Shown: positions 3,073 to 63,696 of the stretch, piece by piece | How the letters are laid out: each line of letters begins with the position of its first letter | How positions within the stretch are numbered: position 1 is the stretch's first letter | Assembly (NCBI GenBank): GCA_963826525.1 | Contig: CAWGXH010000003.1 | Coordinates: 288,001 to 352,000 of the forward strand | Direction: 5' to 3' | DNA length: 64,000 nucleotides | From: an uncultured Methanomicrobiaceae archaeon | Lineage (GTDB): Archaea > Halobacteriota > Methanomicrobia > Methanomicrobiales > Methanoculleaceae | Translations under genes and position numbers: made by a program | The notes under the pieces: generated by a model | The model's input: only the letters and a program-made list of their open reading frames with translations | Database searches by the model: none | What the model was told of the DNA's origin: nothing

Positions 3073-3184
3073 TGCTGCGGGTGGGATCCGAACCCACGAT
3101 CTCCAGATGTCCCAGGTCTGGACGCTCCGTTTTTTCCTCAAAACCCTATGAGTCTGGCGCCCTAACCAGCTAGGCCACCGCAGC
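3073..3184 (-). tRNA. tRNA-Met(CAT), elongator type, with a 38-nt intron at 37/38 (3109-3146)
   Basis: Acceptor stem GCTGCGG/CCGCAGC, anticodon arm CCAGA-CTCATA|intron|A-TCTGG, T loop GGTTCGGATCC, bulge-helix-bulge at the splice sites. Confidence 0.93.
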
Positions 3185-6566: not shown

Positions 6567-7220
6567 TCACTGTACAACTATAAAAACATCACGAACGGGA
6601 ATGAATGCACAAATTGCGATGAATACGGCGAAAAATGCCCTGGCGGCTTCACGGCGATCGGGCTCGAATCTTGGGTGGATATGCCCTCCGTTCCGGTATC
6701 CCCTGACCGTGAGCAGTTTCGCCGTCTCCTCCGTGCGCCGCAGCTGGTTGATGATAATATTGGTGGTCAGGGGAGCGAGCGTCCCGATCGACGGCCGCAT
6801 TCCCTTGATGGCCATCGCCCGGGTTATCTGAGTAATATCCTGCTCGATGATCCGGAGGCTCTGCAGCCCCATCTCCGCAATGAGGCCGATATCGAACCCG
6901 ATCCCATCACCGAGGAGCCAGACCGAGACCTCGAGGAGCTCGCCGTCCTGCCGGTCGGCGTATGCCCAGGCAGCGATGAGGAGGATTACTGTCATCCTGA
7001 TCAGGTAGGAGAGCCCGTCGCCGCCTGAGAACCCGGAGAGAGCTGCAGAGGCTCCGATCATCACGATCACCCCGGCGAGGACTCTCGGATGCGGGAGCGC
7101 CCGCCACCGGGGTGTGAAAAGCAGCCACCAGATCAGTGCCGCCACCGCCCCGGTCACACTTGCAAATGCGGCGATGGAGAGCACCACCGTAACAAGAATC
7201 CTCAGCCGCGGATCCTGCAT
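6567..7220 (-). CDS. ECF transporter T component (BioN/EcfT-like)
   Basis: Hydrophobic protein from MQDPRLR, preceded by AGGAGG; AMAIKG and LTVRG coupling-helix motifs. Confidence 0.75.
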   Translation of the reverse strand: MQDPRLRILVTVVLSIAAFASVTGAVAALIWWLLFTPRWRALPHPRVLAGVIVMIGASAALSGFSGGDGLSYLIRMTVILLIAAWAYADRQDGELLEVSVWLLGDGIGFDIGLIAEMGLQSLRIIEQDITQITRAMAIKGMRPSIGTLAPLTTNIIINQLRRTEETAKLLTVRGYRNGGHIHPRFEPDRREAARAFFAVFIAICAFIPVRDVFIVVQ

Positions 7221-7901
7221 AGCGCCTCCTTGACATCGAGTGAGCGTGATATTCGAAGGCTGTGCGCCGAGCGTGAGGGCGTACCGCAGGTACGGCGGCG
7301 CCGATCGCCAGAGCGGGATGGCACCGGGAACCTCCCCGCAGGAGATCAGTCTGCCCGTCTCCATCTCGGAGATCGTCCGGACCCGGGGGAGAATCGAGCG
7401 TTCGTGGGAGAATATGATGGTAATACCGCTCTGCCGCTCCTCGATCGCCCTGCATGCGCGCACCTTTGCGGCACAGTCGAGCGAGCTGAAGGGCTCGTCG
7501 AGGAGGAGCAGGTCGGGATCTTTTGCAAACGCACACGCCAGAGTAAGTCTTTTGAGCTCGCCGCGGCTGAGCATCAGCGGGTCGCTCTCCTCCCGGCCGG
7601 CGAGCCTTGCCCGGGGAAGGATCTCGCCGGGATCAAGCCCCCACGACCGGACCTCCCCGGCAACCGTGCCGCAGGTGACGTGATACTCCGGGAACTGCAA
7701 CGAGAGCAGGGACGAGCCCACCCCCTCCCGGTGAACGCTGCCCCGCTCGGTTTTCTCTAAAGAGGCGAGGATGGCTGCGAGTGTCGATTTCCCGCTGCCG
7801 ACCGGGCCGCTGACCAGGTGGACGCCCTCCCCGAAGGAGGCGCTTGCCCGGAGCGTGAATGACCCCCGCCGGAGCGTGACGTCGTCCGCACGAATCAGCA
7901 T
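7202..7901 (-). CDS. ECF/ABC ATPase; 1-nt indel near 7240
   Basis: GPVGSGKS, LSRGE, LLLLDEP. The natural end DVKEALCRIRG* lies in another frame. Confidence 0.8.
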
Positions 7902-8569
7902 CCCCGCACCCTCCAGAGCGCCGGGTAAAAGCAGGTCTCCTCGAGGTGTCCGAAGACCTCCTCCCCCGTTCCGGCATGGCGGATGCATCCGTCCTCGATG
8001 TAGAGCAGCAGCTCCGCTTCAGCTGCCGTATCCATATTCTGCGTACAGGCGATGACCGATATCTCCGGCCGGCTCAGGATCGCGTTCTTCACCCGGCGGT
8101 TTGCCTCCTCGTCGAGGTGCGAGTCGACCTCGTCGAGGATGAGGAGTTCCGGGTCGTGAACCAGCGCCGCGGCGAATGCGACGAGCGCCTTTTCCCCGCC
8201 GGAGAGTTCGCCCGTCGCCTTTGAAAGGAGGTCCTCTATCCCGAGCAGGGCTGCGATCCCGTTCACCTGTGCCTCCGCCTCCCGGCAGGGGACGCGGGCG
8301 AATCGGAGCGATGAGGCTATCTCGTCGTAGACGCGTGAAAAGAGCATCGTCCTGTCGGGAAACTCCCCGACCCAGCCGATCCGGACGTCGGACGGTTTTC
8401 TCCCGTGCAGCGTGACCGAACCGCTCTCGGGCTCCTCCATCCCTGCACAGAGTTCAAGGAACGTTGTCTTCCCTGCTCCGTTCGGCCCGATAACGGCGAT
8501 CTGCCGGGCATCGGCAGAGAGCGAAGGAATGGTGAGGCGGCGATGCCGCACCCCGGAGCAGCGGATCAT
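7895..8569 (-). CDS. ECF/ABC ATPase (BioM-like)
   Basis: GPNGAGKT, LSGGE, LILDE. Confidence 0.85.
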   Translation of the reverse strand: MIRCSGVRHRRLTIPSLSADARQIAVIGPNGAGKTTFLELCAGMEEPESGSVTLHGRKPSDVRIGWVGEFPDRTMLFSRVYDEIASSLRFARVPCREAEAQVNGIAALLGIEDLLSKATGELSGGEKALVAFAAALVHDPELLILDEVDSHLDEEANRRVKNAILSRPEISVIACTQNMDTAAEAELLLYIEDGCIRHAGTGEEVFGHLEETCFYPALWRVRGC

Positions 8570-9066
8570 GCGACCCGTTTCCCGATCGAGTATGCTGCGG
8601 CGAGTTTGATCATATCGCCGAGCAGGAACGGCACCATTCCGAACAGCACCGCCGAGATGAACGGGAGCGATGCGGAGTACGAGAGCCAGGAGACCCCGAA
8701 GAGATATACGACGCCGGTCGCGGCAACAAGCCCTGCTATACGGATGCACTCGCTTTTCCGCTCGTAGGCGAGACCTGCGACCACTGCGGCGAAAACGAAC
8801 CCTATGAGAAACCCACCGGTCGGCCCGAGCAGCACGCCGAGCCCTGCCGTCCCGTTGTGAAAGACCGGAAGGCCGAGGGCGCCGAGGAGCACGAAGAGCG
8901 TGACCGGGATGACGGCATACCGGCGCATCGTGATGCCCGCAAGCATGACAAAGAGCGTCTGGAGCGTCAGCGGCACCGGGAAAAAAGGGATGGAAATCCA
9001 ACTTCCCGCGGCAATAAGCGCAATGAACGTCCCGCTGTAGGCGAGGATCTCTGCACGCTGTTTCAT
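8566..9066 (-). CDS. bioY: Biotin transporter S component BioY
   Basis: PVPLTLQT, GLPVF, GPTGGFLIGF; lies between birA and the ECF module. Confidence 0.93.
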   Translation of the reverse strand: MKQRAEILAYSGTFIALIAAGSWISIPFFPVPLTLQTLFVMLAGITMRRYAVIPVTLFVLLGALGLPVFHNGTAGLGVLLGPTGGFLIGFVFAAVVAGLAYERKSECIRIAGLVAATGVVYLFGVSWLSYSASLPFISAVLFGMVPFLLGDMIKLAAAYSIGKRVA

Positions 9067-9099
9067 CGTCAACCTCTCTATCATTCACTGGTTGACGAT
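9065..9099. promoter_or_regulatory. Putative BirA operator ATCGTCAACC-N15-GGTTGACGAT
   Basis: Perfect 10-bp inverted repeat with the GTnAAC...GTTnAC geometry of BirA boxes, at the bioY start. Confidence 0.75.
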
Positions 9100-20054: not shown

Positions 20055-20133
20055 GGCATATAGGTGGTCTGTGAGAAAAAGAGTCATACTGGTGTAGTAT
20101 GGATTGGTCTCATTTCCAGGGGGTCTTGAGAAG

Positions 20134-21461
20134 ATGAAAAAAAGGTTATTTCAGAGAAGTTCCGATCCGGTGTATACCACCCTCGACGATTGGATTCTCC
20201 ACGAAGCGATTCCGTTCTCCGTTGATTCGTCCGAAACCCTCAATGCCTCCATCGACAGGGTCATCGCCTCACTCGGCGACCCGGTGGAACTCCTCGGCTT
20301 TGGGGAAGCACTCCACGGCGGCGAGGAGATTCTTCTCCTCCGTAACCGGCTCTTCCGGCGTCTGGTGGAGGCGCATGGATACAGCGCCATTGCCATCGAG
20401 AGCAGTTTCCCTCGTGCGCACGTCGTGAACGAGTACATCGCCGGCCGCGGCCCGGCATCGTACGAGGCCGTGCAGGAGACCGGATTTAGCCACGGGTTCG
20501 GCCGGCTCGACGCGAACCGGGAACTCGTGGAGTGGATGCGGACGTACAATGCCGATCCTTCCCACCCGCTCAAACTCCGGTTCTACGGCTTTGATAGTCC
20601 GACCGAGATGGTCGGCAGCGATAGTCCACGTCAGGTCCTGCATTTTGTCCTCGATTACCTCGCCTCGATCGATAGCGCCGGCAGTGAGGAGCGTCGCCAG
20701 CGCATCGACCTGCTTCTCGGCCGGGACTCCGATTGGGAGAACCCCGCTGCAGCGTTCGACCCGGCGAAGTCGATAGGACTCTCACCAGCCGCAACGGAGT
20801 CTCCGGATCGAGACGGAGGATCTCATTACCGAACTCTGCATACGCCGTCCCGAACTGGTGGCGAAGAGCGACAGAAGTCGCTATCTGGAAGCCGCGCAGT
20901 ATGCAGCGGTCGCACGGCAGTCTGCTGAACTATCATGCGGTGCTTGCGCGAACCTCGGCCGACCGGGTTAGCCGGCTGCTCGGCATTCGCGACGCAATGA
21001 TGGCGGATAATCTGGCACATGTGGTCTCCCGTGAGCGTGGCCGGGGGAAGGTGCTCGCCTTTGCTCACAACAGCCATCTGAAGTGCGGAAAGGCGGTATG
21101 GCACTTCGGCACCGACGTGTACGCATGGTGGCCGGCGGGAGCGCACCTCGATGTGACCCTCGGCCCGCGGTATGCCGTCATCGGTTCGGCGGTCGGCGTC
21201 TCGGATCCGAACGGGATCGGCACGCCCGAAGCCGGTACGCTTGAGGCGCTTCTCGCCGCCGCACCGGGGCCGGGGCGGTTTATTCCGACGCACAGAGGCC
21301 AGGGGCTTTTAGCCCCGGAAATCGCAGCGCTTCCGACCCGCTCGGGCAGTATGAAGAACCCGACCTACTTCCCACTCACTCCGGAGAGCTTCACCGATTT
21401 TGACTGGCTGGCTGTCCTGGATAGTGCGGCATACAACCGCGGTGGGCCGGCGCTCCCATAA
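20134..21461 (+). CDS. Erythromycin esterase family protein; two frameshifts near 20800 and 20920
   Basis: LGFGEALHG, IAIES, FYGFD, RDAMMADN, AHNSH. Confidence 0.85.
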
Positions 21462-29801: not shown

Positions 29802-32222
<2,421 letters not shown>

Positions 32223-46863: not shown

Positions 46864-49800
46864 TCAGTTCAGACTGAACCGTTCCATCATCTTCTTGAGT
46901 TGTTCCGCCATCACTGCAAGTTCGTGCGATGCGCTGCCGACCTCCTGCGTCGACGCACTGACCTCTTCGGCAAGGGCGGCCATATCCTCGGTCCTTCCCA
47001 TATTCTCCTTGTTCATGTGGGTCGAGTCTTCCATATTCTGCATGACGTGGTTGGTGGAGTTTGCCTGGTCCTCGGCAGCTTTCGTGATCTCCGTGATACC
47101 GTGGGCAACCACTTCCGCCTCGTCGATGATCCGGTTCAGGGCATCGATCGCCTTATTGACGCTCTCGATACCCGCCTGGATCTCGTTGTGCGACGACCGC
47201 ATCGACCCTGCCGTCTTGTCGCTGCTGGCCTGGATCGACAGGATCATATTCGCGATATCCTGGCTTGCACCTTTTGACTCTCCTGCAAGGTTTCTGATCT
47301 CTCCGGCAACCACCGCAAAGCCCCGGCCGTGTTCGCCGGCCCTCGCGGCCTCGATGGCGGCGTTCAGTGCGAGCAGGTTCGTCTGGTTGGCGATATCGGT
47401 GATCAGTTTGACGATGTTGTTGATCTCCCGCATCTGCACATTCAGATCGGTGATCTCCTTCACGCTCTGCTCTGAGATCTCCTCCACATACTGCATCTTC
47501 TTCGTGGCGATCTGTCCGAGGGCGGCAGCATCGTTCCCTTCCTTTGCGGCCTTCGATGCGTGGTCCATGACCTCCTGGGAGGTGCTTGCGATCTCTTCGA
47601 TGGATGCCGAGAGGTCGGTGATCTCCTGGCCTATCTCCTCGATCTTCTCGAGCTGCCGCCGGGCGTCCTCGCTCGACTGCTGCGTGGAGAGTGCCACCTG
47701 CTCGGTTGCCCGGATGATCTCGTCCGAGCTCCTGCTCACCTCCTTTGTGGTCTGCTCGACCTGCTCGGCGGCCTTGACCACTTCCTTGAGGAGTGCCCGG
47801 ATGGCGGTGGCGGATGCGTTATAGTCCTCCTTCACCCTCTTGAGCGGGTCGTTCGCCCCAACCGTGACGGATGCGGTCAGGTTTCCCTGGGCCATCGCAC
47901 TCAGCGCCTCGCCGAGTTCTTCCGCACTCCGGGCGAGGACTGCATTCTCCTCCTGTGCAGTCTCCATAAGCTGCCGGATCTGCTGCTCTTTCTCCCGCTG
48001 CTCCGTGATATCGAGGTAGATGTAGAAGGCGACGTCGATCTTTCCGTATTTATCGAAGATCGGGATTCCGTAGAGGATAAGGAACTTCTTCACGCCGTCC
48101 GGCCAGGTGACCAGCATCTCCGATACGGATAGTTTTCCCTTCTCATAGCAGGCGTAGAAGTCGTCGCCGGAGAGCACCTTGATGTTAAAGTCGGAGAGCT
48201 TCTTGGCCATCAGCTCGTCCCGGGTGCCTCGCCATACCTGCTCGTACGTCTTGTTGATGTCGATCCGCTTCTTCTCCTTATCGAGCACGGCGATGGCGAG
48301 CGGGTTATTCTTGATCATCGTCTCGACGCGGTGCTGTGCGGCCTGGGACTCGTCCATCTTCTCGTGGAGATCCGTCCAGTCGTTCCAGACGTAGAAGGCC
48401 ATCTCTATCTCGCCGTTCCTGTCGAGGATCGGGATGGCGTTCAGGGTCAGGTACTTCCGCACACCGTCGGGCCACTTGACGCGGACATTCGTCGTCGCCC
48501 GCTTCTTCGTCTCGTAGCAGGCGTAGAAGTGGTCGCCGTCGAGAACCTCGATGTCGTAGTCGTAGAGTTTCTTTGCAATCGTCTCTTCGCGGGTTCCGCG
48601 CCACATCCGGGCATACTCGTCGTTGATGTCGATCCGGCTCTTGTCGGCGCGCAGAACGGCGATCGCAAGCGGGTTTTCCTTGATCATCGTGTCGTTCCGC
48701 TGCTGTACCTTCTTGACCTCCTCCATCTTCTCGTGAAGATCCGTCGTGTCGTTCCAGACGTAGAAGGCCATCTCTATCTCGCCGTTCTTATCGAGGATGG
48801 GGATGGCGTTCAGGGTCAGGTACTTCCGGACGCCGTCGGGCCACTTGACGCGGACGTTCGTGGTCGCCCGCTTCTTCGTCTCGTAGCAGGCGTAGAAGTG
48901 GTCGCCGCTGAGAACCTCGATGTCGTAGTCGTAGAGTTTCTTTGCAATCGTCTCTTCGCGGGTTCCGCGCCACATCCGTGAGTACTCGTCGTTGATGTCA
49001 ATCCTGCTCTTGTCTGCCCGCAGGACCGCGATGGCGAGCGGGTTTTCCTTGATCATCGTGTCGACGCGGTGCTGTACGGCTGTGGTCTCGTTCATCTTCT
49101 CGTGAAGATCCGTCGTGTCGTTCCAGACGTAGAAGGCCATCTCTATCTCGCCGTTCGTATCGAGGATGGGGATGGCGTTCAGGGTCAGGTACTTCCGCAC
49201 ACCGTCGGGCCACTTGACGCGGACGTTCGTGGTCGCCCGCTTCTTCGTCTCGTAACAGGCGTAGAAGTGGTCGCCGCTGAGAACTCTCGATGTCGTAGTC
49301 GTAGAGCTTCTTTCGCAATCGTCTCTTCGCGGGTTCCGCGCCACATCCGTGAATACTCGTCGTTGATATCGATCCTGCTCTTGTCTGCCCGAGGACGGCG
49401 ATCGCGAGCGGGTTCTCCTTGATCATCGTGTCGACGCGGTGCTGCATCCGCCTGATCTCTTCCTCCTCTTTGCGGAGGCTCGGTGATGTCGTTGTAGACG
49501 TTCAGGAGAGCGCTGAGTTCGCCCTTCTCGTTCAGGATGGGAATGCCGTGCTGCTCGAGGGTGATAGGTTCCGGCCGGAAACTCGACGACGATCTCTCCA
49601 AGCGAGCGCTGTTTCTGGACGATGGCCTTCTTGATGCCGTCACCGCTTCTTCGACAGAATCTTGAAATCCCGAAGAGACATCGCCATTATCCGTTCGCGT
49701 GGAATACCGCTGAGTTTGACGAAGGCTTCATTGGTGATCGTCACGCCGAACTCTTTATCGACGACGAGCATCGGCATCGGGTTCTGCTCGATGAGCACCT

Positions 49801-55029: not shown

Positions 55030-55764
55030 TCACGGGCGCAGCACGTCCCGACGCCCCTGGTCCACGGCATGATCCGGGCGGAGGCCGAGGTGCCCGATAA
55101 GCGCCGAGAAACCGGTGAGCACATAGTCCGCGCCGGTGTTGCCTCTCTCCCCTGTGCGCCAGTCGCCGTAGCTCGCAAAGGCGGTCAGCATCCCGAGGTC
55201 CCTTCCCGGGGCGATGTCGCGATTCGGGCTGTCCCCGACCATCATCGCCTGGTGCGGCTCCGCCCCGAACCGGGCGAGGGCGTACAGGAACGAGTCCGGT
55301 GCCGGCTTTCGCTTCCCCGAGATATCGGGGGTGACGACCAGTTCGAAGAGATCCAAGAGTCCCGTGCGGGTGAGCCGCCGCGTCGCCTGGGCATATTCCG
55401 CATCCGTGACGACGGCAAGCGAAAGGCCGGCATCCCGGAGGCAGGAGAGCGTCGTCTCCACATCGGGATACGGGGTAATGCACTCGAGTTTCACGTCCTC
55501 GTAGATCCGGCAGCAGGCAGCGAACGTCTCCGGACAGACTACTGCGAGGGTATCGAGGTAGTCCCGGATATTTCCATGGTCTTCAAAGCCATGAACTCCC
55601 CGAAGGAAATAGCCGAAGAGCTCTTCTTCGTCCCCCGCCCCGACCTGCTCGACGATACGCCGGCAGGCCTCGCGTTTTGCAGACACGAAGTCGAAGAGCG
55701 TATTGTCCATATCGAATAAAATGGCGGTTATCTCTCGATCCCGAGCTCTGCAAGCCTTCTGCAT
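55030..55764 (-). CDS. HAD-superfamily hydrolase (subfamily IA)
   Basis: FDMDNTL, VVTD, KP, GDSPNRD. Confidence 0.9.
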   Translation of the reverse strand: MQKACRARDREITAILFDMDNTLFDFVSAKREACRRIVEQVGAGDEEELFGYFLRGVHGFEDHGNIRDYLDTLAVVCPETFAACCRIYEDVKLECITPYPDVETTLSCLRDAGLSLAVVTDAEYAQATRRLTRTGLLDLFELVVTPDISGKRKPAPDSFLYALARFGAEPHQAMMVGDSPNRDIAPGRDLGMLTAFASYGDWRTGERGNTGADYVLTGFSALIGHLGLRPDHAVDQGRRDVLRP

Positions 55765-56739
55765 AGTGTTAGTTCCCCCAAAAATTTCCGGTAGAGTCCG
55801 TCGTCCGAGAAGCGGAGTTTCACCTCGTCGAGAGCGTTTCCTTTCCCCCCGTACTCCCCGAAGATGACGACGCCGCTACAGTCGATGAACCCGAATGCCG
55901 CGGAAAGCGTGAAGAGATACTCGAGAAATGCTCCCGCGGTGCAGGATGCCGCCCGAACCCGATAGGGCCGCTCGAAGAAGAAGTACTCGAATCCCCTCGG
56001 CGTCGCAGATATCGGCCATATAGATATCCGCCGTCAGCAGGACGGGAAGGGCGTATCGCTCCTCCTCGAACCGCCGCATTGCCTGGGCGATCTTCCGATC
56101 GTTCTCGCTGTTCCGGTGCGAATGCTGCCCGGGCGACGCTATCTCGGTCGCCCGGTCGCGGATGCTCCGGTACTCCCTGAGGGCCAGGTATGCGGCTTTC
56201 CGGGATTTCTTGGTGCGTTTGTTCTCGAGTTCGGCGATGAGCGATGCATGTTCCGGTGCATACCCGGCAAACTCGGCGATCCTGCCGGTGCTGTACTTGT
56301 GGTTGATGGCAAACGTGATCTCGTCCCGGACCGTATCGACGATGAGGTACTTATGAGGAGCGATGGCAGGATTGACGGACGCAAAGCGCTGGTAGAAAAG
56401 GTTGGTATCGAGCCCGAAGAAGACGTCCTTCTTCAGCCGGTGGTAGGCGGAGAGCATCCCGTCGAAGGTCTCCTGGTTGTCGTACCTGATGATGCCGCTC
56501 GCAAGCGCGCACTCAAGAATGTCCGAGTAGGACGGAAGTTCATTCGCGACGGAGCCGAAACGCTCCTGCGAGGTCCGGATATCGTCGCTGTCGGCACGGA
56601 GGTCGAGTTCGTAGCCGGTGCCCTTCGGCCGTGCCGTCAGCAGGTCGTGGTCGTAGAGGGGATAGGAGATGCTGATCTCCCCGTCCATCAGGTTGAGGAG
56701 GATCTGCAGTTCGCCCGCGACGATGGTGATATCGCTCAT
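55728..56739 (-). CDS. PIN-domain protein with N- and C-terminal extensions; frameshift near 55991
   Basis: GLDTNLFY, VRDEI, ENDRKI, LLTAD; corrected frame ends ...CRRLAELGIER* at 55728. Confidence 0.8.
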
Positions 56740-57245
56740 GGGGAGTTCCTCCGCCCGGCCTCTTCTGAAAAGTCCCTGATCTCCTGTATCCGGAGAGGAA
56801 TCATCATATACGGCTTTGCAATATCCTCGACGCTCTTCATTGCCAGGTAGTATATGTGCCGGATCTCCGTCCCACCCGCAGCAACGGCTGCGAGGGCTCC
56901 TGCAATCGTGGCTTTCCTTCCCGAGGTGATGTCGAGTGCGATGAGGAACCCTTCACCTGAAAGCCGCTCGACGAGGGAGCCGACCGTCCGCCCGGCACCG
57001 ACAAAATCCGCCTCCTCCACAAGCTCGAGGAAGATCTCCGGGTCTGCCCCATAGGCCTCCGAGATGATCCCGATCGCCGCCTTTGCCGTTTCTGCGTTCT
57101 CTGCATACGGCCGTTCCGCAATAATATAGACCCGCTCGGGGCGAAGGCCCCGCTCCCGGAGGACGGCATAGTAGGTGTTGACGAGAGCCCACGTCGACCG
57201 CCCGAGAGGAGTTATATAGGCATCCTGTGGCATCGGCATCTCCAA
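56736..57245 (-). CDS. Stand-alone CARF-like protein
   Basis: ITPLGRS (motif I) and LDITSGRK (motif II) in a 169-aa Rossmann-like protein. Confidence 0.75.
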   Translation of the reverse strand: MEMPMPQDAYITPLGRSTWALVNTYYAVLRERGLRPERVYIIAERPYAENAETAKAAIGIISEAYGADPEIFLELVEEADFVGAGRTVGSLVERLSGEGFLIALDITSGRKATIAGALAAVAAGGTEIRHIYYLAMKSVEDIAKPYMMIPLRIQEIRDFSEEAGRRNSP

Positions 57246-57573
57246 AGAGATTCTGGTCTTCCTTCTTCAAAACTCTCTCCCGGATCTATATAGTTTTTTT
57301 CCGGTGGGATCGCCGTCGCCCGTGGGGCGTTTTGCCGGCTCGAAAACCGTTTTTCTGTTCTTCTTCGATCTGCTTACGGCGGTTTTTCAAAGAGATTGTC
57401 TTTTTGGGAAACGGCTTAATCTGGTTCTGATTTCACATCTGAGATTTAATAGGGGCTTATAGGGGAAACAAACCCCTCAGAAAAAGAATAAAATTTGGTA
57501 AGAATTTTATGATAAGTCCGCTAAAAGGGGTACTTGAGCGCTACGCTTCAGAGATCCGTGAAGGGAACGAGCG

Positions 57574-58185
57574 ATGACGAGAGATGCAGGACCAGGAACG
57601 CCTGAAGAGATCTGGGGTCTCGTCGACCCCGACCAGACGAGAAAGATGCGCCGGGACGCGATCGAGGACGGCGAGCTTATCGAGATAACCCGGATGGGAA
57701 AAGACATCGGCATACGCTACCCCCTTGCCGTATCGGCACGGGCGGCGGAGCGTCTGGTGCCGTTCCCGAACATCCCCCAGGATACCGTCACGGAGAACCT
57801 GTGGGATACGCTCCATGCATTCCGGGAGAAGGCATCGAGCACCCCCGAAGCGGAGTTTATCTTCTCGGTGAGCCTCTACCTGAACGGTCTGGTGCCGACG
57901 CTGACGTTCAAAGCGACGGTCTCGGCGGGGGACGAGGGCGAGCCGGTCATCACCATAATGACCCCCGAGGAAGACTGGGAGAGTGTCGGCGGCGGCGTCC
58001 CGTCTTCCGATAGCCCTGCCGGGCCCGCGCTCTTTACCGTCGATGATGTTGCGCGCCTGCTGAAGTTCTCCCCCTGCCGTATCCGGGCCTTCATCCGGGA
58101 CGAGAAGATTCCCGCCGTCAAGTGCGGAGGGTCGTGGCGTATCAGGCGGTCGGATATCGAGCGCATCATCACCGACGGGTTCTGA
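57574..58185 (+). CDS. DUF6573-like domain fused to an excisionase-type HTH (HTH_17)
   Basis: RRDAIEDGELIEI...GIRYPLAV...LWD...GDEGEPVITIM; LFTVDDVARLL...IPAVKCGGSWRIRRSDI. Confidence 0.72.
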   Translation: MTRDAGPGTPEEIWGLVDPDQTRKMRRDAIEDGELIEITRMGKDIGIRYPLAVSARAAERLVPFPNIPQDTVTENLWDTLHAFREKASSTPEAEFIFSVSLYLNGLVPTLTFKATVSAGDEGEPVITIMTPEEDWESVGGGVPSSDSPAGPALFTVDDVARLLKFSPCRIRAFIRDEKIPAVKCGGSWRIRRSDIERIITDGF

Positions 58186-58317: not shown

Positions 58318-61300
58318 ATGCGGACGAGTGGCATGCCCTTTTGTCGGATCTGCACCGGTACATCGGGCGCCGGGCTCTCCGACGGCATGACGAGCAGCGC
58401 TGCCTGTTACGGGAGAGGTTACCTGCCGTACGGCACCGGGTGCGCGGGCATGCTTGCACTCGTCGCTCTCCTCTGCACCCTCGCTCTCTTTGCCTCCCCG
58501 TCTCTCTCCTTCGATACCGTTCCGGTCTCCCCCGATATGCCTCTCGTGGCAGTGGCCGGACTCTTTGGCGAGAGGGGCCGTTCCCTGCTCGGCAGGTTAT
58601 GGCGTACCGGGGAGCCGAAGGAGACTGCCGATGAACCGGGTTCTGCGGAGAGGAAGATCGTTCCCGCAGAAGACGAACCACGTCCACCGGCTATTCCTAG
58701 AGGAGAGATGCCCCTCGCGATCCCGGCCGCCGCCGACGATCCATCCACAATCATCGAACGTCTTGATGCCATCCCCGTCATTGCGGAACAGGTACTCGGC
58801 GTTTGCCGCGCTCGATGCCGCCGAGTTTAAAAGCCGCATGAGTGATTCGGCAGCCGCTCTTCTGGAGGATGACGAATTCGCCGGGAGTTTTTTAGAACCG
58901 CACCGCTCCGAAGAGACGGATCCCTTCGAAGAGGAGGCGGCTTGCGGGGGGAACGAACCTGTTCTTGACCCGGCTCCGCCCGAGGATCTTGCGGCCCTTC
59001 CGGCCGAAGAGTCCGGGATGCTGGAGGATGCTCTCTCCGAACTCGAAGCGATCGATCTGCCGGAGAGCGACCCGGCGTTCCCGGATCTCGCGATCGATGA
59101 GTGCGAGCCGGAGACGGACGAACCCGAATACGGTGCTCTCTCTCCCGACGAACTCGTTACACGCCTCGGGAGCGATGATGCGGACGAGCGTCGGCGTGCG
59201 GTACAGGCGCTCGGAGCGATCGGTGCCGAGGCGGTCGGGCCGCTCATCGGCGTGCTCGGCGATGCGGGCGATCAGGTCAGGTGGGCTTCCGCGGATGCTC
59301 TCCGGATCATCGGCACTCCTGCTATTCCGTCCCTGATCCGTTCTCTCAAGGACCCCGCCCTGCAGCTCGGCGCCGCGACGGCACTCGTGAAGATGGGCGA
59401 ACCCGCGGTGCCGCACCTCATCGAGGCGCTCATCGACGGAGACCGCGATATCCTTATCGGAGCAGTGTACGCCCTCGAGGAGATTGGCAAACCGGCGATA
59501 CCCTACCTTGTCCCGGCGCTCACGCGTCCCGAAGAGGGGCTCTCGAGGAAGGCTGCCGAACTCCTCGGAGAACTTGGATGGAAGCCGGAAGACGACGACG
59601 GGCGGATCGGCTACCTGATCGCCCGGGAAGAATGGATTGCTATCGCAGAACTCGGCGAACCCGCGGTCGACCCGCTTATCGAACTGCTCGCATCCTCCGA
59701 CCCGGGTGTCCGGCGGAGTGCGGCGCGGACGCTCGGCGCGATGGGGGAGATTGCCGTGGACCGACTGGCCGCGGTTCTCAGGGAAGGTGACCTGCAATCG
59801 CAGAAACTGGCCGGGCTTGCTCTCGCAGATATCGGCACGCCCGCGGTCGGGCCGCTTTTCGGGATGCTCCGGATTCCGGAGATCCGGACGACGGCCGGCG
59901 CGGCGCTCGCCAGGATCGGCGAGCCGGCGGTGCAGCCTCTTCTATCGGCGTTGCAGGGCGCGGAGGATGATTGCCGAGAGACCCTGCAGGGCATTCTCGT
60001 CGGCATCGGCGAGCCGGCGGAGACCGCGCTCATCCAGGTGTTGATGACGGGCGGCACGGATGAAGGCCGGGTCGCGGCACCGGTTCTCGAGAGGATGGGC
60101 TGGGAGCCGTGGAACGATCACGAGCGGGCTCACTATCTGGTTGCAAAGGAGCAGTGGACCGAGCTTGCGCTGCTCGGTCAGGCGGCGCTCGCTCCGCTTA
60201 TCCGGGCAGTCGCGAGCGACGACCCGTCTATCCGGCGTGAAGCAGCGGAGACGCTCGGTCAGCTCGGCGATGCACAGGCCGTCCTGCCTCTCGTGCGTGC
60301 CCTCGACGACGAGTTCATCCGCATCGAGGCCGCAGAGGCACTTTTCAGAATCGGCAATCCCGCCGTCGCCCCCCTCCTGCAGGTGCTCGAACAGGGCGAC
60401 GGGGAGGCGCGAAGGCTTGCAGCCGAGATCCTCGGACGTATTGGCCGTGCAGAAGCGACCGGGGGGCTTATCCGGGCTCTGTATGCCGGAGACGACCGCC
60501 TGCGGAGAGTGGCGGTGGACTCCCTTGCGGCGATCGGCGAGCCTGCGGTGGCTCCGCTGATTGCAACCCTCGGCGAGGATGACGACCTGCAGATGAGCGG
60601 GATCCTCGCGCTTGCACGGATTGGGGCGAGCAGTCTCGACCCGCTCCGGAGTGCTCTTGCTTCCCGGAGCCCCCGGGTTCGGGCGGGAGCTGCAGAGGCG
60701 CTGGAGCGGCTCGGCTGGTCTCCCCGGGATGATACGGACCGGGCACGGTATCTGGTCGCACGGGAGCGGTGGGTGGATGCTGCAGCCCTCGGGGAGCCGG
60801 CAGTGGCTCCGCTCATCGATGCGTTCCGTGACCCGGACGGAGCAGCCCGGGCCGGTGCCGGGGAAGCGCTTCTACGCATCGGGGCAGGTGCGGTGCCGTC
60901 GCTCATCGGTCTTTTTGACGACGATTCGTCCCGTGAGGCGGCGGCGGGGCTGCTTGAACGGATAGGCGTTCCTGCGCTCGACCCGCTTCTCCGGGTGCTC
61001 GGCGATGAGCGAACCGGCAGAATTGCGGCGGATATTCTGGTGCGGATCGGCGAGCCGGCCGGCCGCGCGCTGGTGCCCGCTCTCACCAGTCCGGACGTTC
61101 TGCCCGAAGCGAGATACGCACTGACCGCCATGGGTATCCGCGCCGTCGAACCGCTCGTCGATGCGCTCCGCGACGATCGCCTTCGACGGGAGGCTGCCGA
61201 TATCCTGCTCGCGATCGGGAGCGATGCCTATGCTCCGCTCATTCGCGCGCTCTCCGATCCCGATGAGGATATCCGGCTCGGCGTTGCTGCGGTCCTTACC

Positions 61301-62569
61301 CGTGTGGGAACGGCTGCGGCGGACGATCTCGTCGATGCCCTCGGATCGGATGATTTCAGGGTGCGCCTCGGTGCTGCGGAGGTCCTCGGGCGGATCGGGT
61401 GGCGGCCTCGGAGCGAGGCGGAGGCTATCCACTACCTTCTCGCGAAGGAGCAGTGGACGGAACTTGCGCGCCTCGGCGCTCCGGCGGTGGCTCCGCTCAT
61501 CCTCGCCCTCAGCGACCCCGACGGGGACGTGCAGATGGGGGCGGCTTCGGCACTCGGTATGATAGGGAGGCCCGCCGTAGCGCCCCTTATCCTCGCGCTC
61601 CGTGACGAAGATGCGGTCGAGAGCGAAAAGGCGATCGAAGCGCTGCGGAAGATCGGGGAGCCTGCCATAGATGCGCTGATCCAGGCATTCCGGGACGAGG
61701 ACTGGCAGATCCGTCTCGGAGCGGCGCGGGCGCTCGTCAGGATAGGAACTCCGTCGGTCGACCCGCTTATCCAGGCGCTACACCTCGGGTCGCCTTCGAT
61801 CACGATGGGTGCCGCAGCCGCGCTCGGCAAGATAGGCGATCCGAGAGCCGTCGACTCCCTGGTGCTGGTGCTCCTGCAGGAGGACTGGCATATCGGCAGG
61901 CTCGCAGTGCATGCTCTCGGGATGCTCGGCGAGCCCGCTATCGATCCGCTGACGCGGGTGCTCAAAGACGGGAGCGAGACGGCCTGGAAGGGTGCCGTGG
62001 CTGCTATCGTGACGATCGGCGAGCCCGCAAAGCCGCGGCTCTGCGAACTGCTCGCGGACGATCATTTCCGGGTTCGGGCAGGGGCTGCGGAGGCGCTGGA
62101 TCGCCTGCACTGGAAGCCGGCCGATACGGTTGCCCGCGCCCACTACCTGATCGCAAAAGAGCAGTGGGTCGATCTGGTGCACCTCGGCGGAACTGCCGTC
62201 GAACCGCTCATCGGGGTGCTCCGTGACGGTGATGACAGTATCAGACGGCGGGCTGCCGGGCTCCTCGGGGAGATCGGGGACGCTCGCGCCGCAGAGCCGC
62301 TTCTTTGCCTGCTCTCCGACGACTACCACAGTATCCGCCGGGAGGCTGCAGCCGCGCTCGTCAAGATAGGAGAGCCGTCGGTCGGACCGCTCATCCGTGC
62401 TCTTGCGAGCGGTGACGAAGACGTCCGGCGGCGGGCTTGTGGAGCACTCGGGGATATCGCGAGCGTCGAGGCGGCAGAGCCCCTCCGTCAGGCGCTTACC
62501 GATGCGAGCTGGCACGTGCAGCAGGCCGCACGCGATGCACTTTTGAAGATCCGGCAGCGGCGCGGGTAA
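58318..62569 (+). CDS. Giant HEAT/PBS-lyase repeat protein, probably with N-terminal hydrophobic anchor; start uncertain, frameshift near 58792
   Basis: Dozens of AA.ALG.IG.PAV.PLI.AL units after an acidic linker. Confidence 0.88.
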
Positions 62570-63194: not shown

Positions 63195-63696
63195 ATGTGG
63201 GCTGAGATCCTGCGGGAGTTCTCCGACTCGCCGTCCCAGTGCAGAGTGGTGCGTTTTCTGCTGGAAAACGGTTTCGGCGTCAACGAAGACGGCAGAATCG
63301 TATGCAACGGAGTCGAGATTCCGGCGACGCATATCGGAAAGGCGATCGACACGGACCGGCGCGTCGTGGACGCCACCGCCCGCCGCATCCTCGCCATCCC
63401 CGCTCTCAGAGATGTCTTCACGCATATGCGGGCGTCTCCCGATCTCTCCCGGGTCGCCGAGGCGCTGGGTCTTTCCGTGATCACGCTCATCCCGAAGAAT
63501 GCGCAGCAGAAAGGCATCGTCGGTGCGGCGGTGGCGGTGCTCGTGAACCACCAGCTCGCGATTAGGCAGATCTTCGTGACCGACCCCTACTTCGCCGAAG
63601 AGCCGAAGCTCGTCATGATCCTCGACGAAAAAGTGCCTTCCGTGGTCTTCGAGGAGCTCCCGGGCGCTTCCGCAGGTAAAACAACTGATTATCTGA
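63195..63696 (+). CDS. ACT-domain amino acid metabolism regulator; frameshift near 63660
   Basis: LLENGF.V, DRRVVD, GIV..V...IRQ...DP; corrected end LPQVKQLII*. Confidence 0.82.

Follow-up and report, generated by a model that had tools for sequence, protein, structure and literature searches.

What does a CARF domain do in a genome where no maker of its usual signal is found? The question is raised by a short operon on the minus strand, at positions 55030-57245, of a 64,000-nucleotide stretch of DNA from an uncultured Methanomicrobiaceae archaeon (assembly GCA_963826525.1, contig CAWGXH010000003.1, positions 288,001 to 352,000), referred to here, at its full length, as the window. In type III CRISPR systems the signal is received by CARF domains, and few examples that work without Cas10 have been worked out (RtcR and Panoptes). 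A first-pass annotation, made from the sequence alone, had proposed that the operon, consisting of a CARF gene, a PIN nuclease gene and a HAD phosphatase gene, was the stretch's best candidate for an undescribed defence or stress system. In the analysis reported here, the CARF and PIN genes are the two halves of one CARF-PIN protein, the pair proved to be independent of CRISPR, and its probable role is in regulated RNA turnover or a stress response. The three genes, with protein lengths in amino acids (aa), are as follows:

56736 to 57233, minus strand: gene 1, CARF-only, clade CARF_m1, 165 aa when started at the ATG (57233)
55728 to 56739, minus strand: gene 2, a PIN RNase of the 336-aa type (the uncorrected reading frame, 55876 to 56739, encodes 287 aa, the last 37 of them out of frame)
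55030 to 55764, minus strand: gene 3, a HAD-IA phosphatase, 244 aa

Both the list of open reading frames (ORFs) and a direct reading of the sequence gave three co-oriented, overlapping genes. The mechanical ORF of gene 1 spans 56736-57245 (169 aa from a TTG); the ATG at 57233 matches the starts of homologues. The ATGA at 56736-56739 combines the stop of gene 1 with the start of gene 2, and the HAD start (ATG at 55764) overlaps the restored end of gene 2 (TAA at 55728-55730) by 37 nucleotides (nt). The layout and the ATGA overlap had been described correctly on first pass; the gene 2 stop then placed at 55728 is also right, but only after a frameshift has been read through. In the nearest relative, genome G110, gene 2 is an intact ORF of 336 aa and both overlaps are present.

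Gene 1 is a true CARF domain, an assignment based on its match to the CARF_m1 profile, on structural neighbours that are all CARF proteins, and on conserved pocket motifs. The PADLOC profile PDLC01971 (CARF_m1--CARF) matched gene 1 at E 1.3e-57 (192.3 bits, profile positions 2-154 of 156). The best of the other named CARF clades was CARF3 (2.8e-06), with CARF_m13 at 5e-04; an unclassified CARF_PIN profile, PDLC01068, scored 4.6e-13, and no CARF7 profile was present among the 15 PADLOC matches. Pfam and NCBIfam gave nothing over cut-off. An AlphaFold model built with 18 homologues (predicted local distance difference test, pLDDT, 75.4; below 50 in the C-terminal 35 residues) matched 40 PDB chains in Foldseek at E<=1e-3. 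The leading matches were all CARF proteins (Csm6, Cam1, Crn1, Csa3, Can2, Card1 and SiRe_0806). The best 50 entries in VIA-align (VIA) were likewise all CARF, at Z 10.8-15.1; the ring nuclease Sis0811 was the nominal top at 15.1, with the CARF classes lying within about 2 of one another. A search of PDB sequences with the CARF profile returned chance matches to eL36 and nothing else.

The CARF pocket signature combines Gly-x-Ser/Thr, following strand 1, with D-x-T-x-G-x-K/R, following strand 4. In gene 1 the corresponding motifs are LGRS, within a GRS(T)WA pattern, and LDITSGRK, and the protein has a C-terminal KPYMMIP tail. An alignment of 77 representatives (identity down to 21%) showed at least 90% conservation at N19, P32, D101, T103, K107, Y129 and P146; these correspond to the pocket signature plus the C-terminal PYxMIP motif. 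The CARF fold proposed on first pass was thus borne out by PADLOC, Foldseek and VIA alike, and both motifs it had listed are present. The tail is conserved and, in the model, disordered; it may be a docking element for the PIN subunit.

Gene 2 is predicted, from alignment and from the model of an orthologue, to be a PIN_4-type RNase with intact catalytic residues. Its domains are an N-terminal alpha/beta domain (residues ~1-100), a PIN_4-like domain (~101-260) and a C-terminal domain (~263-331); the extra terminal domains reported earlier are thereby supported by both model and alignment. The acidic set named at the same time is also in place, in the motifs DTN (111-113), E140, ND (213-214) and TAD (236-238): D111 T112 N113, E140, D214 and T236 A237 D238 were invariant in 25 of 25 aligned relatives, the four acidic residues D111, E140, D214 and D238 among them. 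PIN_4 itself matched 20 of 25 relatives at E<=0.1, the best at 1.6e-9. The model of the G110 orthologue (pLDDT 93.3) found its best PDB match in SiRe_0806 of Sulfolobus islandicus (Foldseek 4.8e-6), and VIA placed residues 1-332 on SiRe_0806 residues 152-418 with Z 16.0 and a root-mean-square deviation (rmsd) of 4.2 over 244 residues. Next in VIA came PIN domains at Z 9-12, with residues 100-260 matching those of Rrp44, SMG6, AF0591 and an M. jannaschii protein, and with Nob1 in the same range; VapC toxins reached about Z 8.

Sequence searches with gene 2 were less productive than its model. A profile search of PDB sequences gave a weak match to SiRe_0806 (E 0.0064) as well as matches to TAL effectors, which were set aside as spurious multi-repeat hits with no significant stretch, and a single-sequence search added nothing useful. 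In the ESM Atlas the PIN protein (L031:8752-9762) retrieved the family's own clusters and a Thermoproteota cluster at TM 0.58. A further cluster nearby, of 464 aa and at TM 0.65, contained Alba in 43% of its members and PIN_4 in 30%. As a lead only, this suggests an effector body that might be fused to an Alba RNA/DNA-binding domain instead of CARF.

The frame of gene 2 in this assembly is broken at one site:

55990 to 55991, minus strand: a single extra base (T on the coding strand), which shifts the frame of gene 2 after residue 250

The extra T, in GGGGAT[T]CGAG, was identified against G110 by pairwise DNA alignment and by the blastn listing of indels. When it is skipped, the frame remains open to the TAA at 55728-55730, and the downstream part is 92% identical to G110. 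The final 37 residues of the uncorrected protein matched nothing, all matches from the 201 genomes introduced below ending near query residue 250-258, and full-length PIN ORFs of 328-348 aa were present at nearly all of 100 relatives' loci, the remainder being cut by contig ends or spuriously extended upstream. We regard the frameshift as most likely an assembly error, because the same kind of 1-nt insertion breaks other genes. Relative to G110, isolated 1-nt insertions occur in the window in the adenine deaminase gene (~53331), in the HGSNAT-family gene (~54018 and ~54093) and at 63659; split ORFs (20104-21461, 29938-32222 and 6567-9088) include the genes for an ABC ATPase, CDC48 and an erythromycin esterase; and cas1 on another contig (G000:C4:25563-26373) is broken likewise. 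Indels in so many housekeeping genes point to assembly errors rather than pseudogenes. Contigs from public sequencing runs leave 55951-56139 uncovered, and the runs listed were four small-share DNA runs with no RNA run among them. A programmed frameshift was considered and rejected: relatives' ORFs are intact wherever the contig allows, and the sequence at the site does not form a slippery run.

Judged by profiles and models, genes 1 and 2 are the two halves of one CARF-PIN protein in split form. On the 465-position profile PDLC01973 (CARF_m1--CARF_PIN) the two genes match consecutively, gene 1 at 3-152 and gene 2 at 219-395. Gene 1 also superposes on residues 1-138 of SiRe_0806 (VIA Z 13.7, rmsd 2.9, 130 residues), and domain order and fold agree with this single-chain type over its whole length. 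Natural fusions exist. A word-index search for longer relatives of gene 1 found none, a blank attributable to limited sensitivity, since an exhaustive profile search with the CARF_m1 gene 1 then returned 299 clusters at E<=1e-3 and, among the best 150 representatives, eight fused forms of 485-531 aa with the CARF domain N-terminal. One of these, P0126, is 43% identical over residues 181-508 to the full-length PIN protein. The three fused forms inspected (P0126, P0141 and P0171) have [KR]PYxMIP followed by a linker of 20-30 residues, after which the PIN part begins with ELxxLLN. In the window and at all loci examined, CARF and PIN are encoded by separate genes with an ATGA overlap rather than on a single polypeptide. 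The split sensor-effector suggested in the first-pass annotation therefore stands as a split architecture of which fused forms exist.

The pair is CRISPR-independent, since 60 of the 64 genomes that hold it have no cas10 over cut-off and no known cyclase was found in the genome of the window. In the 64-kb window, as had been stated before, no cas10, CRISPR array or CD-NTase was found with Rfam at gathering thresholds, Tandem Repeats Finder (TRF) and Pfam applied to 53 ORFs; Rfam returned one tRNA only, and TRF no array. In the window's genome, which is 87.6% complete, cas10, mCpol (PF18182) and GGDEF were not found, the one SMODS match (22.5 bits, under cut-off) is the CCA-adding enzyme, and cas1 is carried on the other contig mentioned above. 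The order was represented by 201 evenly drawn genomes, 12 of which had Cas10 models over cut-off; four weak N-terminal Cas10 matches, all in genomes without the pair, were left out of the count. Only G004, G029, G032 and G068 among the 64 holders were positive. The first-pass annotation had asked for a check of whether the pair is conserved where type III CRISPR is lacking, and the 60 remaining holders answer it in the affirmative. Cas10 palm was present in one of five distant holders, which include two complete Methanosuratincola genomes. Within the family, mCpol was found in none of 46 genomes and SMODS over cut-off in three of 46, one of them strong and none within the operon, and a neighbourhood survey of 46 diverse loci found no cyclase gene in the conserved operon.

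How, then, was the pair inherited? In the order-level sample the CARF gene was present in 64 of 201 genomes and the PIN gene in 64 of 201; the genomes were the same, the genes adjacent, and the copy number nearly always one. By family, the pair occurred in 41/43, 12/12, 7/43 (family f5), 2/20, 1/39 (f4) and 0/43 (f6) genomes, and it was uniform in two genera (g2, 37/37; g8, 12/12). Adjacency was found at 20 of 20 loci of the order. A wider scan of species genomes yielded 151 relatives. The 80 loci retained came from Methanoculleus, Methanofollis, Methanoregulaceae, Archaeoglobi, Thermococci, Thermoplasmata, Methanosuratincolia and a Nitrososphaerota bin; PIN follows CARF at 79 of them, and the single non-adjacent locus is a 1.8-kb contig. 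Named homologues of gene 1 include Methanoculleus, Thermococcus, Palaeococcus and Geoglobus species, the closest being that of Methanoculleus taiwanensis (90% identity).

A tree was built from concatenated CARF and PIN sequences (45 rows, rows with cut ORFs having been dropped). Eight of the 38 Methanoculleus-group loci (L051-L088) were drawn randomly for it, and six passed the length filters. Each of five archaeal classes formed one clan, and the four changes required are the minimum possible. Because the tree follows taxonomy and presence is uniform within genera, this is the pattern expected of an old pair, vertically inherited with losses, and not of a mobile island. Two loci carry bacterial labels, L118 (Spirochaetota) and L126 ('bacterium'); their operons are near-identical to the Methanoregulaceae L115 and Thermoplasmata L128 rows of the tree, and the contigs are probably archaeal and were wrongly binned into bacterial metagenome-assembled genomes.

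The third gene of the operon encodes a clear HAD phosphatase, with the intact motifs already recognised on first pass (FDMDNT at residues 17-22, and GDSPNRD). Pfam gave PF00702 Hydrolase at 100.1 bits (2.7e-28; cut-off 26.4) and PF13419 HAD_2 at 93.7 bits (1.9e-26); TIGR02253 (CTE7) reached 111.5 bits (4.7e-32), under its curated cut-off of 169.75. A HAD gene lies downstream of PIN on the same strand at 18 of 20 loci of the order and at 59 of the 71 species loci with enough downstream DNA, and the PIN/HAD overlap of ~37 nt is widely retained among relatives. The 12 loci without it are all eight Thermococci loci plus L051, L113, L126 and L128. From gene order, the HAD link is old and spans several classes.

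It is not an exclusive link. HAD homologues (45-54% identity) are present in 185 of the 201 genomes, with 64 of 64 holders of the pair and 121 of 137 non-holders among them. Non-holders of family f4 have the same backbone as the window (HAD, an EamA-type gene, the HGSNAT gene and adenine deaminase) with no CARF-PIN upstream. In a HAD tree of 65 rows, linked and unlinked copies interleave (four changes, three of them forced by well-supported branches), and the unlinked f4 clade is sister to the linked Methanoculleus clade. The pair has been lost or gained beside a HAD gene that stays. Since HAD occurs in 121 of 137 genomes without the pair, in family f4 on the same backbone, it is not a dedicated part of the system, and the first-pass suggestion that it clears the signal found no support. 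A looser metabolic link is possible, for example dephosphorylation of nucleotides from RNA decay.

A second recurrent neighbour lies on the other side. At 19 of the 46 diverse loci an upstream gene in the same orientation encodes a protein of ~512 aa with MBL and RMMBL domains (beta-CASP), which distantly resembles RNase J (TIGR00649 6.6e-20, under cut-off). The gene stands directly before CARF in Methanoregulaceae, in Thermoplasmata and at L103, L109 and L111, as it does at further loci (L043, L045, L046, L113, L115, L116, L127 and L128, among others), and in most Archaeoglobi a distance of a few kb separates it from CARF. A DUF2284 gene takes the upstream position at Thermococci and Methanosuratincola loci, and at seven loci there is an HFX_2341_N plus winged-helix protein with weak likeness to Csa3.

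The reading we favour, and consider probable rather than secure, is that the pair forms a CARF-gated, two-subunit PIN RNase for regulated RNA turnover or a stress response, not mobile defence. RNA turnover or stress is suggested by the lack of dependence on Cas10, by the vertical, chromosomal character of the module, and by its HAD and RNase J-like context. The proposed order of events is as follows: the CARF subunit would dimerise, and the pocket formed by GRS and DxTxGxK would take a small nucleotide of adenylate type or the end of an RNA; the KPYMMIP tail would dock CARF onto the PIN subunit's N-terminal domain, thereby rebuilding the single-chain architecture; and ligand occupancy would then switch the PIN_4-type active site (D111, E140, D214, D238), with the result that RNA is cut. 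Unlike in characterised CARF effectors, no Cas10 cyclase would be needed. The pair would be co-transcribed with the widespread HAD phosphatase, and an RNase J-like beta-CASP gene lies upstream in many lineages. Complex formation, ligand gating, RNA as the substrate and the physiological role are what we infer here.

A more specific version is tentative only. In it, an endogenous CARF ligand, made without Cas10, mCpol or CD-NTase, would switch a dedicated two-subunit PIN RNase that works with beta-CASP and HAD in a regulated pathway of RNA decay and nucleotide recycling, and this ligand, as part of the same tentative whole, might be an adenylate-derived messenger of unrecognised source or RNA ends with 2',3'-cyclic phosphate. 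If this version were true, CARF signalling would predate CRISPR or stand apart from it, and the CARF-PIN effectors of type III systems would have been recruited from a housekeeping module.

Our favoured reading has evidence to contend with. The supporting models and matches are uneven: the CARF model of gene 1 is of moderate confidence (pLDDT 75.4, the tail below 50), PIN_4 scored 19.0 bits on the window's gene 2 ORF where the Pfam cut-off is 21.9, and the frameshift, if real, would leave the window's copy of gene 2 without its C-terminal domain. The closest solved relative binds cyclic tetra-adenylate (cA4), the messenger of type III CRISPR, so a role dependent on cyclic oligoadenylate (cOA) is conceivable, for example with an unrecognised cyclase as the source. 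In G029 and G032 complete type III-A loci (G029 C2 at about 366.7-376.4 kb, L154; G032 C1 at about 357.5-366.3 kb, L155 and L156) lie ~8 kb and ~19 kb, respectively, from the pair, which in two of the four holders with cas10 is nearer than one would expect by chance. Inheritance and context count against it as well. The pair is patchy between families (0/43 in f6, 1/39 in f4, 7/43 in f5) and thus dispensable; in Archaeoglobi a McrBC pair (AAA_5 plus McrC) is inserted between beta-CASP and CARF at L089, L093, L094 and L096, and a MazE-type antitoxin with a small PF01850 PIN toxin between CARF and PIN at L097 and L107, which is the behaviour of variable regions. A single query (from L043) did not find the beta-CASP partner in the window's genome, and with HAD absent at eight of eight Thermococci loci, neither neighbour is obligatory.

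Several of these points are what would be expected of an abortive-infection-type antiviral effector, in which cOA from a type III system, an unrecognised cyclase or the infecting element triggers non-specific RNA decay. SiRe_0806 was crystallised with cA4, the structural neighbours of gene 1 are all cOA-binding CRISPR ancillary proteins, the family is included in PADLOC, a library of defence genes, and both the nearby type III-A loci (~8 kb in G029, ~19 kb in G032) and the McrBC and VapBC-like insertions in Archaeoglobi operons can be counted on this side. We nevertheless find such an effector unlikely. Cas10 over cut-off is missing from 60 of 64 holders; mCpol occurs in none, and a real CD-NTase in at most three, of the 46 family genomes; the pair is uniform within genera, with a tree that matches taxonomy and a housekeeping context. 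The two nearby type III-A loci have CARF effectors of their own, and the ORFs between them and the pair (9 and ~25) gave no defence match except for one Csa3-like helix-turn-helix and one TnpB/Cas12f-like ORF, both in G032. The defence role considered on first pass is at odds with this housekeeping context and vertical phyletic pattern. It is less likely still that CARF is a ligand-free structural or regulatory partner in a constitutive RNA-processing enzyme, its pocket motifs serving dimerisation or the holding of PIN. Core-gene behaviour within genera would fit, as would the fact that no known signal-making enzyme was found in holders when Cas10, mCpol, GGDEF and SMODS were searched; yet the best-conserved positions among the 77 representatives are those of the pocket signature, D101-x-T103-x-G-x-K107, together with N19, as ligand binding predicts.

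The other explanations are all highly improbable. A guard might be imagined in which a constant ligand holds the PIN RNase off until a viral sponge or nuclease removes the ligand and frees the enzyme; there is a precedent in type II Panoptes, in which, according to PMC13577387, mCpol is combined with a CARF-TM protein under cyclic tri-adenylate (cA3). Such an arrangement is very hard to reconcile with mCpol in none of 46 family genomes, nor in that of the window, and with a conserved operon that has no cyclase gene. Gene 1 could instead be a stand-alone Crn1-like ring nuclease that happens to lie beside an unrelated PIN gene, an idea to which we give slightly less credence than to the guard. 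It is CARF-only and of Crn1-like size, has Ser/Thr after the first strand and Lys in DxTxGxK, and has a ring nuclease, Sis0811 (Z 15.1), as its nominal top in VIA. That ranking is offset by Z values of all CARF classes within ~2 and by profile matches (CARF_m13 5e-4 vs CARF_m1 1.3e-57) that also undo the Crn1 link drawn on first pass; moreover, fused CARF-PIN forms, strict adjacency and the shared phyletic pattern of both genes count against it, and most holders have no maker of a ring-nuclease substrate. Least credible is a toxin-antitoxin pair, likewise suggested at first, in which the PIN protein would be the toxin and the CARF protein its antitoxin. PIN domains are often toxins, and the ATGA overlap resembles that of many toxin-antitoxin pairs, but the genes are usually single-copy, uniform within genera and vertical. 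The PIN protein, with 336 aa and three domains, resembles Rrp44, SMG6 and the M. jannaschii PIN domain (Z 10-12) more closely than it does VapC (Z ~8), the CARF partner has no DNA-binding antitoxin domain, natural CARF-PIN fusions exist, and the genuine VapBC-like pairs at L097 and L107 look different.

Around the operon, the Pfam scan of the window's 53 ORFs found housekeeping families only. Upstream of gene 1, at ~55-65 nt from its start, a promoter may be present; the element was picked out by eye as a candidate archaeal TFB-recognition element (BRE) and TATA box:

57286 to 57300, minus strand: candidate archaeal BRE/TATA element, AAAAAAACTATATAG

On the plus strand, beside the operon, a divergent gene (57574-58185) codes for a fusion of DUF6573 with an excisionase-type HTH_17 domain and is kept only inside the window's family, at seven of 20 loci. 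A second plus-strand neighbour (58454-62569), kept beside the operon in the family, encodes a protein of 1371 aa composed nearly entirely of HEAT/PBS-lyase repeats, with 14 HEAT_2 stretches. Elsewhere in the window, a tandem repeat at 48141-49453 (369 nt x 3.6 copies, 88% matches) lies within an 826-aa methyl-accepting chemotaxis gene and corresponds to repeated PAS-type modules. The tRNA match at 3073-3184 (minus strand) extends over 112 bases where the model has 71 positions, and this tRNA probably carries an intron.

The family to which the pair belongs is a clean test case for CARF signalling: its pocket is strongly conserved, its RNase is strictly coupled, and all sampled genomes of entire genera without a known oligoadenylate cyclase hold it. 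Identification of the ligand would reveal either a new archaeal source of an oligoadenylate-type messenger or a second non-immune use of CARF sensing. The locus also carries a caution for annotation, in that a CARF match in a defence library, or the UniRef name 'CRISPR-associated protein', is by itself no proof of a defence locus. A literature search for SiRe_0806, for 'CARF-PIN' and for CARF and PIN domain with Methanoculleus found nothing, and, the 2020 CARF classification and its supplements excluded, no study of the pair's ligand, CRISPR independence or HAD and beta-CASP context was found. Passages of PMC12409355, PMC9638899, PMC12669027 and PMC11229360 mention CARF_m13 and PIN effectors and do not mention CARF_m1.

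Compared with known systems, the pair shares with VapBC the PIN fold and the overlapping two-gene layout; VapBC differs in having a small DNA-binding antitoxin, a toxin of ~130 aa and a patchy, multi-copy distribution, in contrast to a CARF protein and a 336-aa PIN protein that are mostly single-copy. Ancillary modules of type III systems have Cas10 in the locus or genome, which most holders lack, and those holders with a type III locus nearby have the pair 8-19 kb outside it. CBASS is defined by a CD-NTase with its effector, and the operon has no SMODS gene. Type II Panoptes (PMC13577387) offers a CRISPR-independent CARF effector controlled by cA3, but it requires an adjacent mCpol (0/46 genomes here), has a membrane effector, and is bacterial and a mobile defence. 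RtcR, a CARF activator of an RNA repair operon, is proposed in PMC10159003 to sense tRNA halves with 2',3'-cyclic phosphate. It is an example of CARF outside CRISPR immunity and a precedent for an RNA-end ligand, a likeness claimed at superfamily level only; RtcR is a bacterial sigma-54 activator with transcriptional output, as opposed to the RNase predicted here.

Closer in structure are the Crn1 ring nucleases, of which Sso2081/Sis0455 are assigned to CARF_m13 in PMC9638899 and Sis0811/Sso1393 belong to CARF7. They are small CARF proteins of the same fold (Z 11.5-15.1) with similar pocket motifs, but as enzymes of type III loci they stand alone; gene 1, by contrast, is strictly paired with or fused to PIN, belongs to another clade and occurs mostly without cas10. 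Closest of all is SiRe_0806 (PDB 9JXW, apo; 9JXX, with cA4), deposited as a 'PIN domain-containing protein', which has the same architecture, a PIN effector and the CARF pocket signature. It is one chain of ~418 aa rather than 165 and 336 aa in two genes, at 17-18% identity, and according to the PDB titles it binds cA4, whereas the lineage of the window is mostly without cas10. From the CARF_m1 clade as profiled in PADLOC-DB (PDLC01971 and PDLC01973) no defining difference was found, and the window's pair is a member of it. The names of these profiles presumably derive from the 2020 CARF classification of Makarova and co-workers in Nucleic Acids Research. The operon had been put forward as a candidate undescribed system, but with its family profiled in PADLOC-DB and a cA4-bound relative solved, that family is already catalogued, and the locus is a further member of it.

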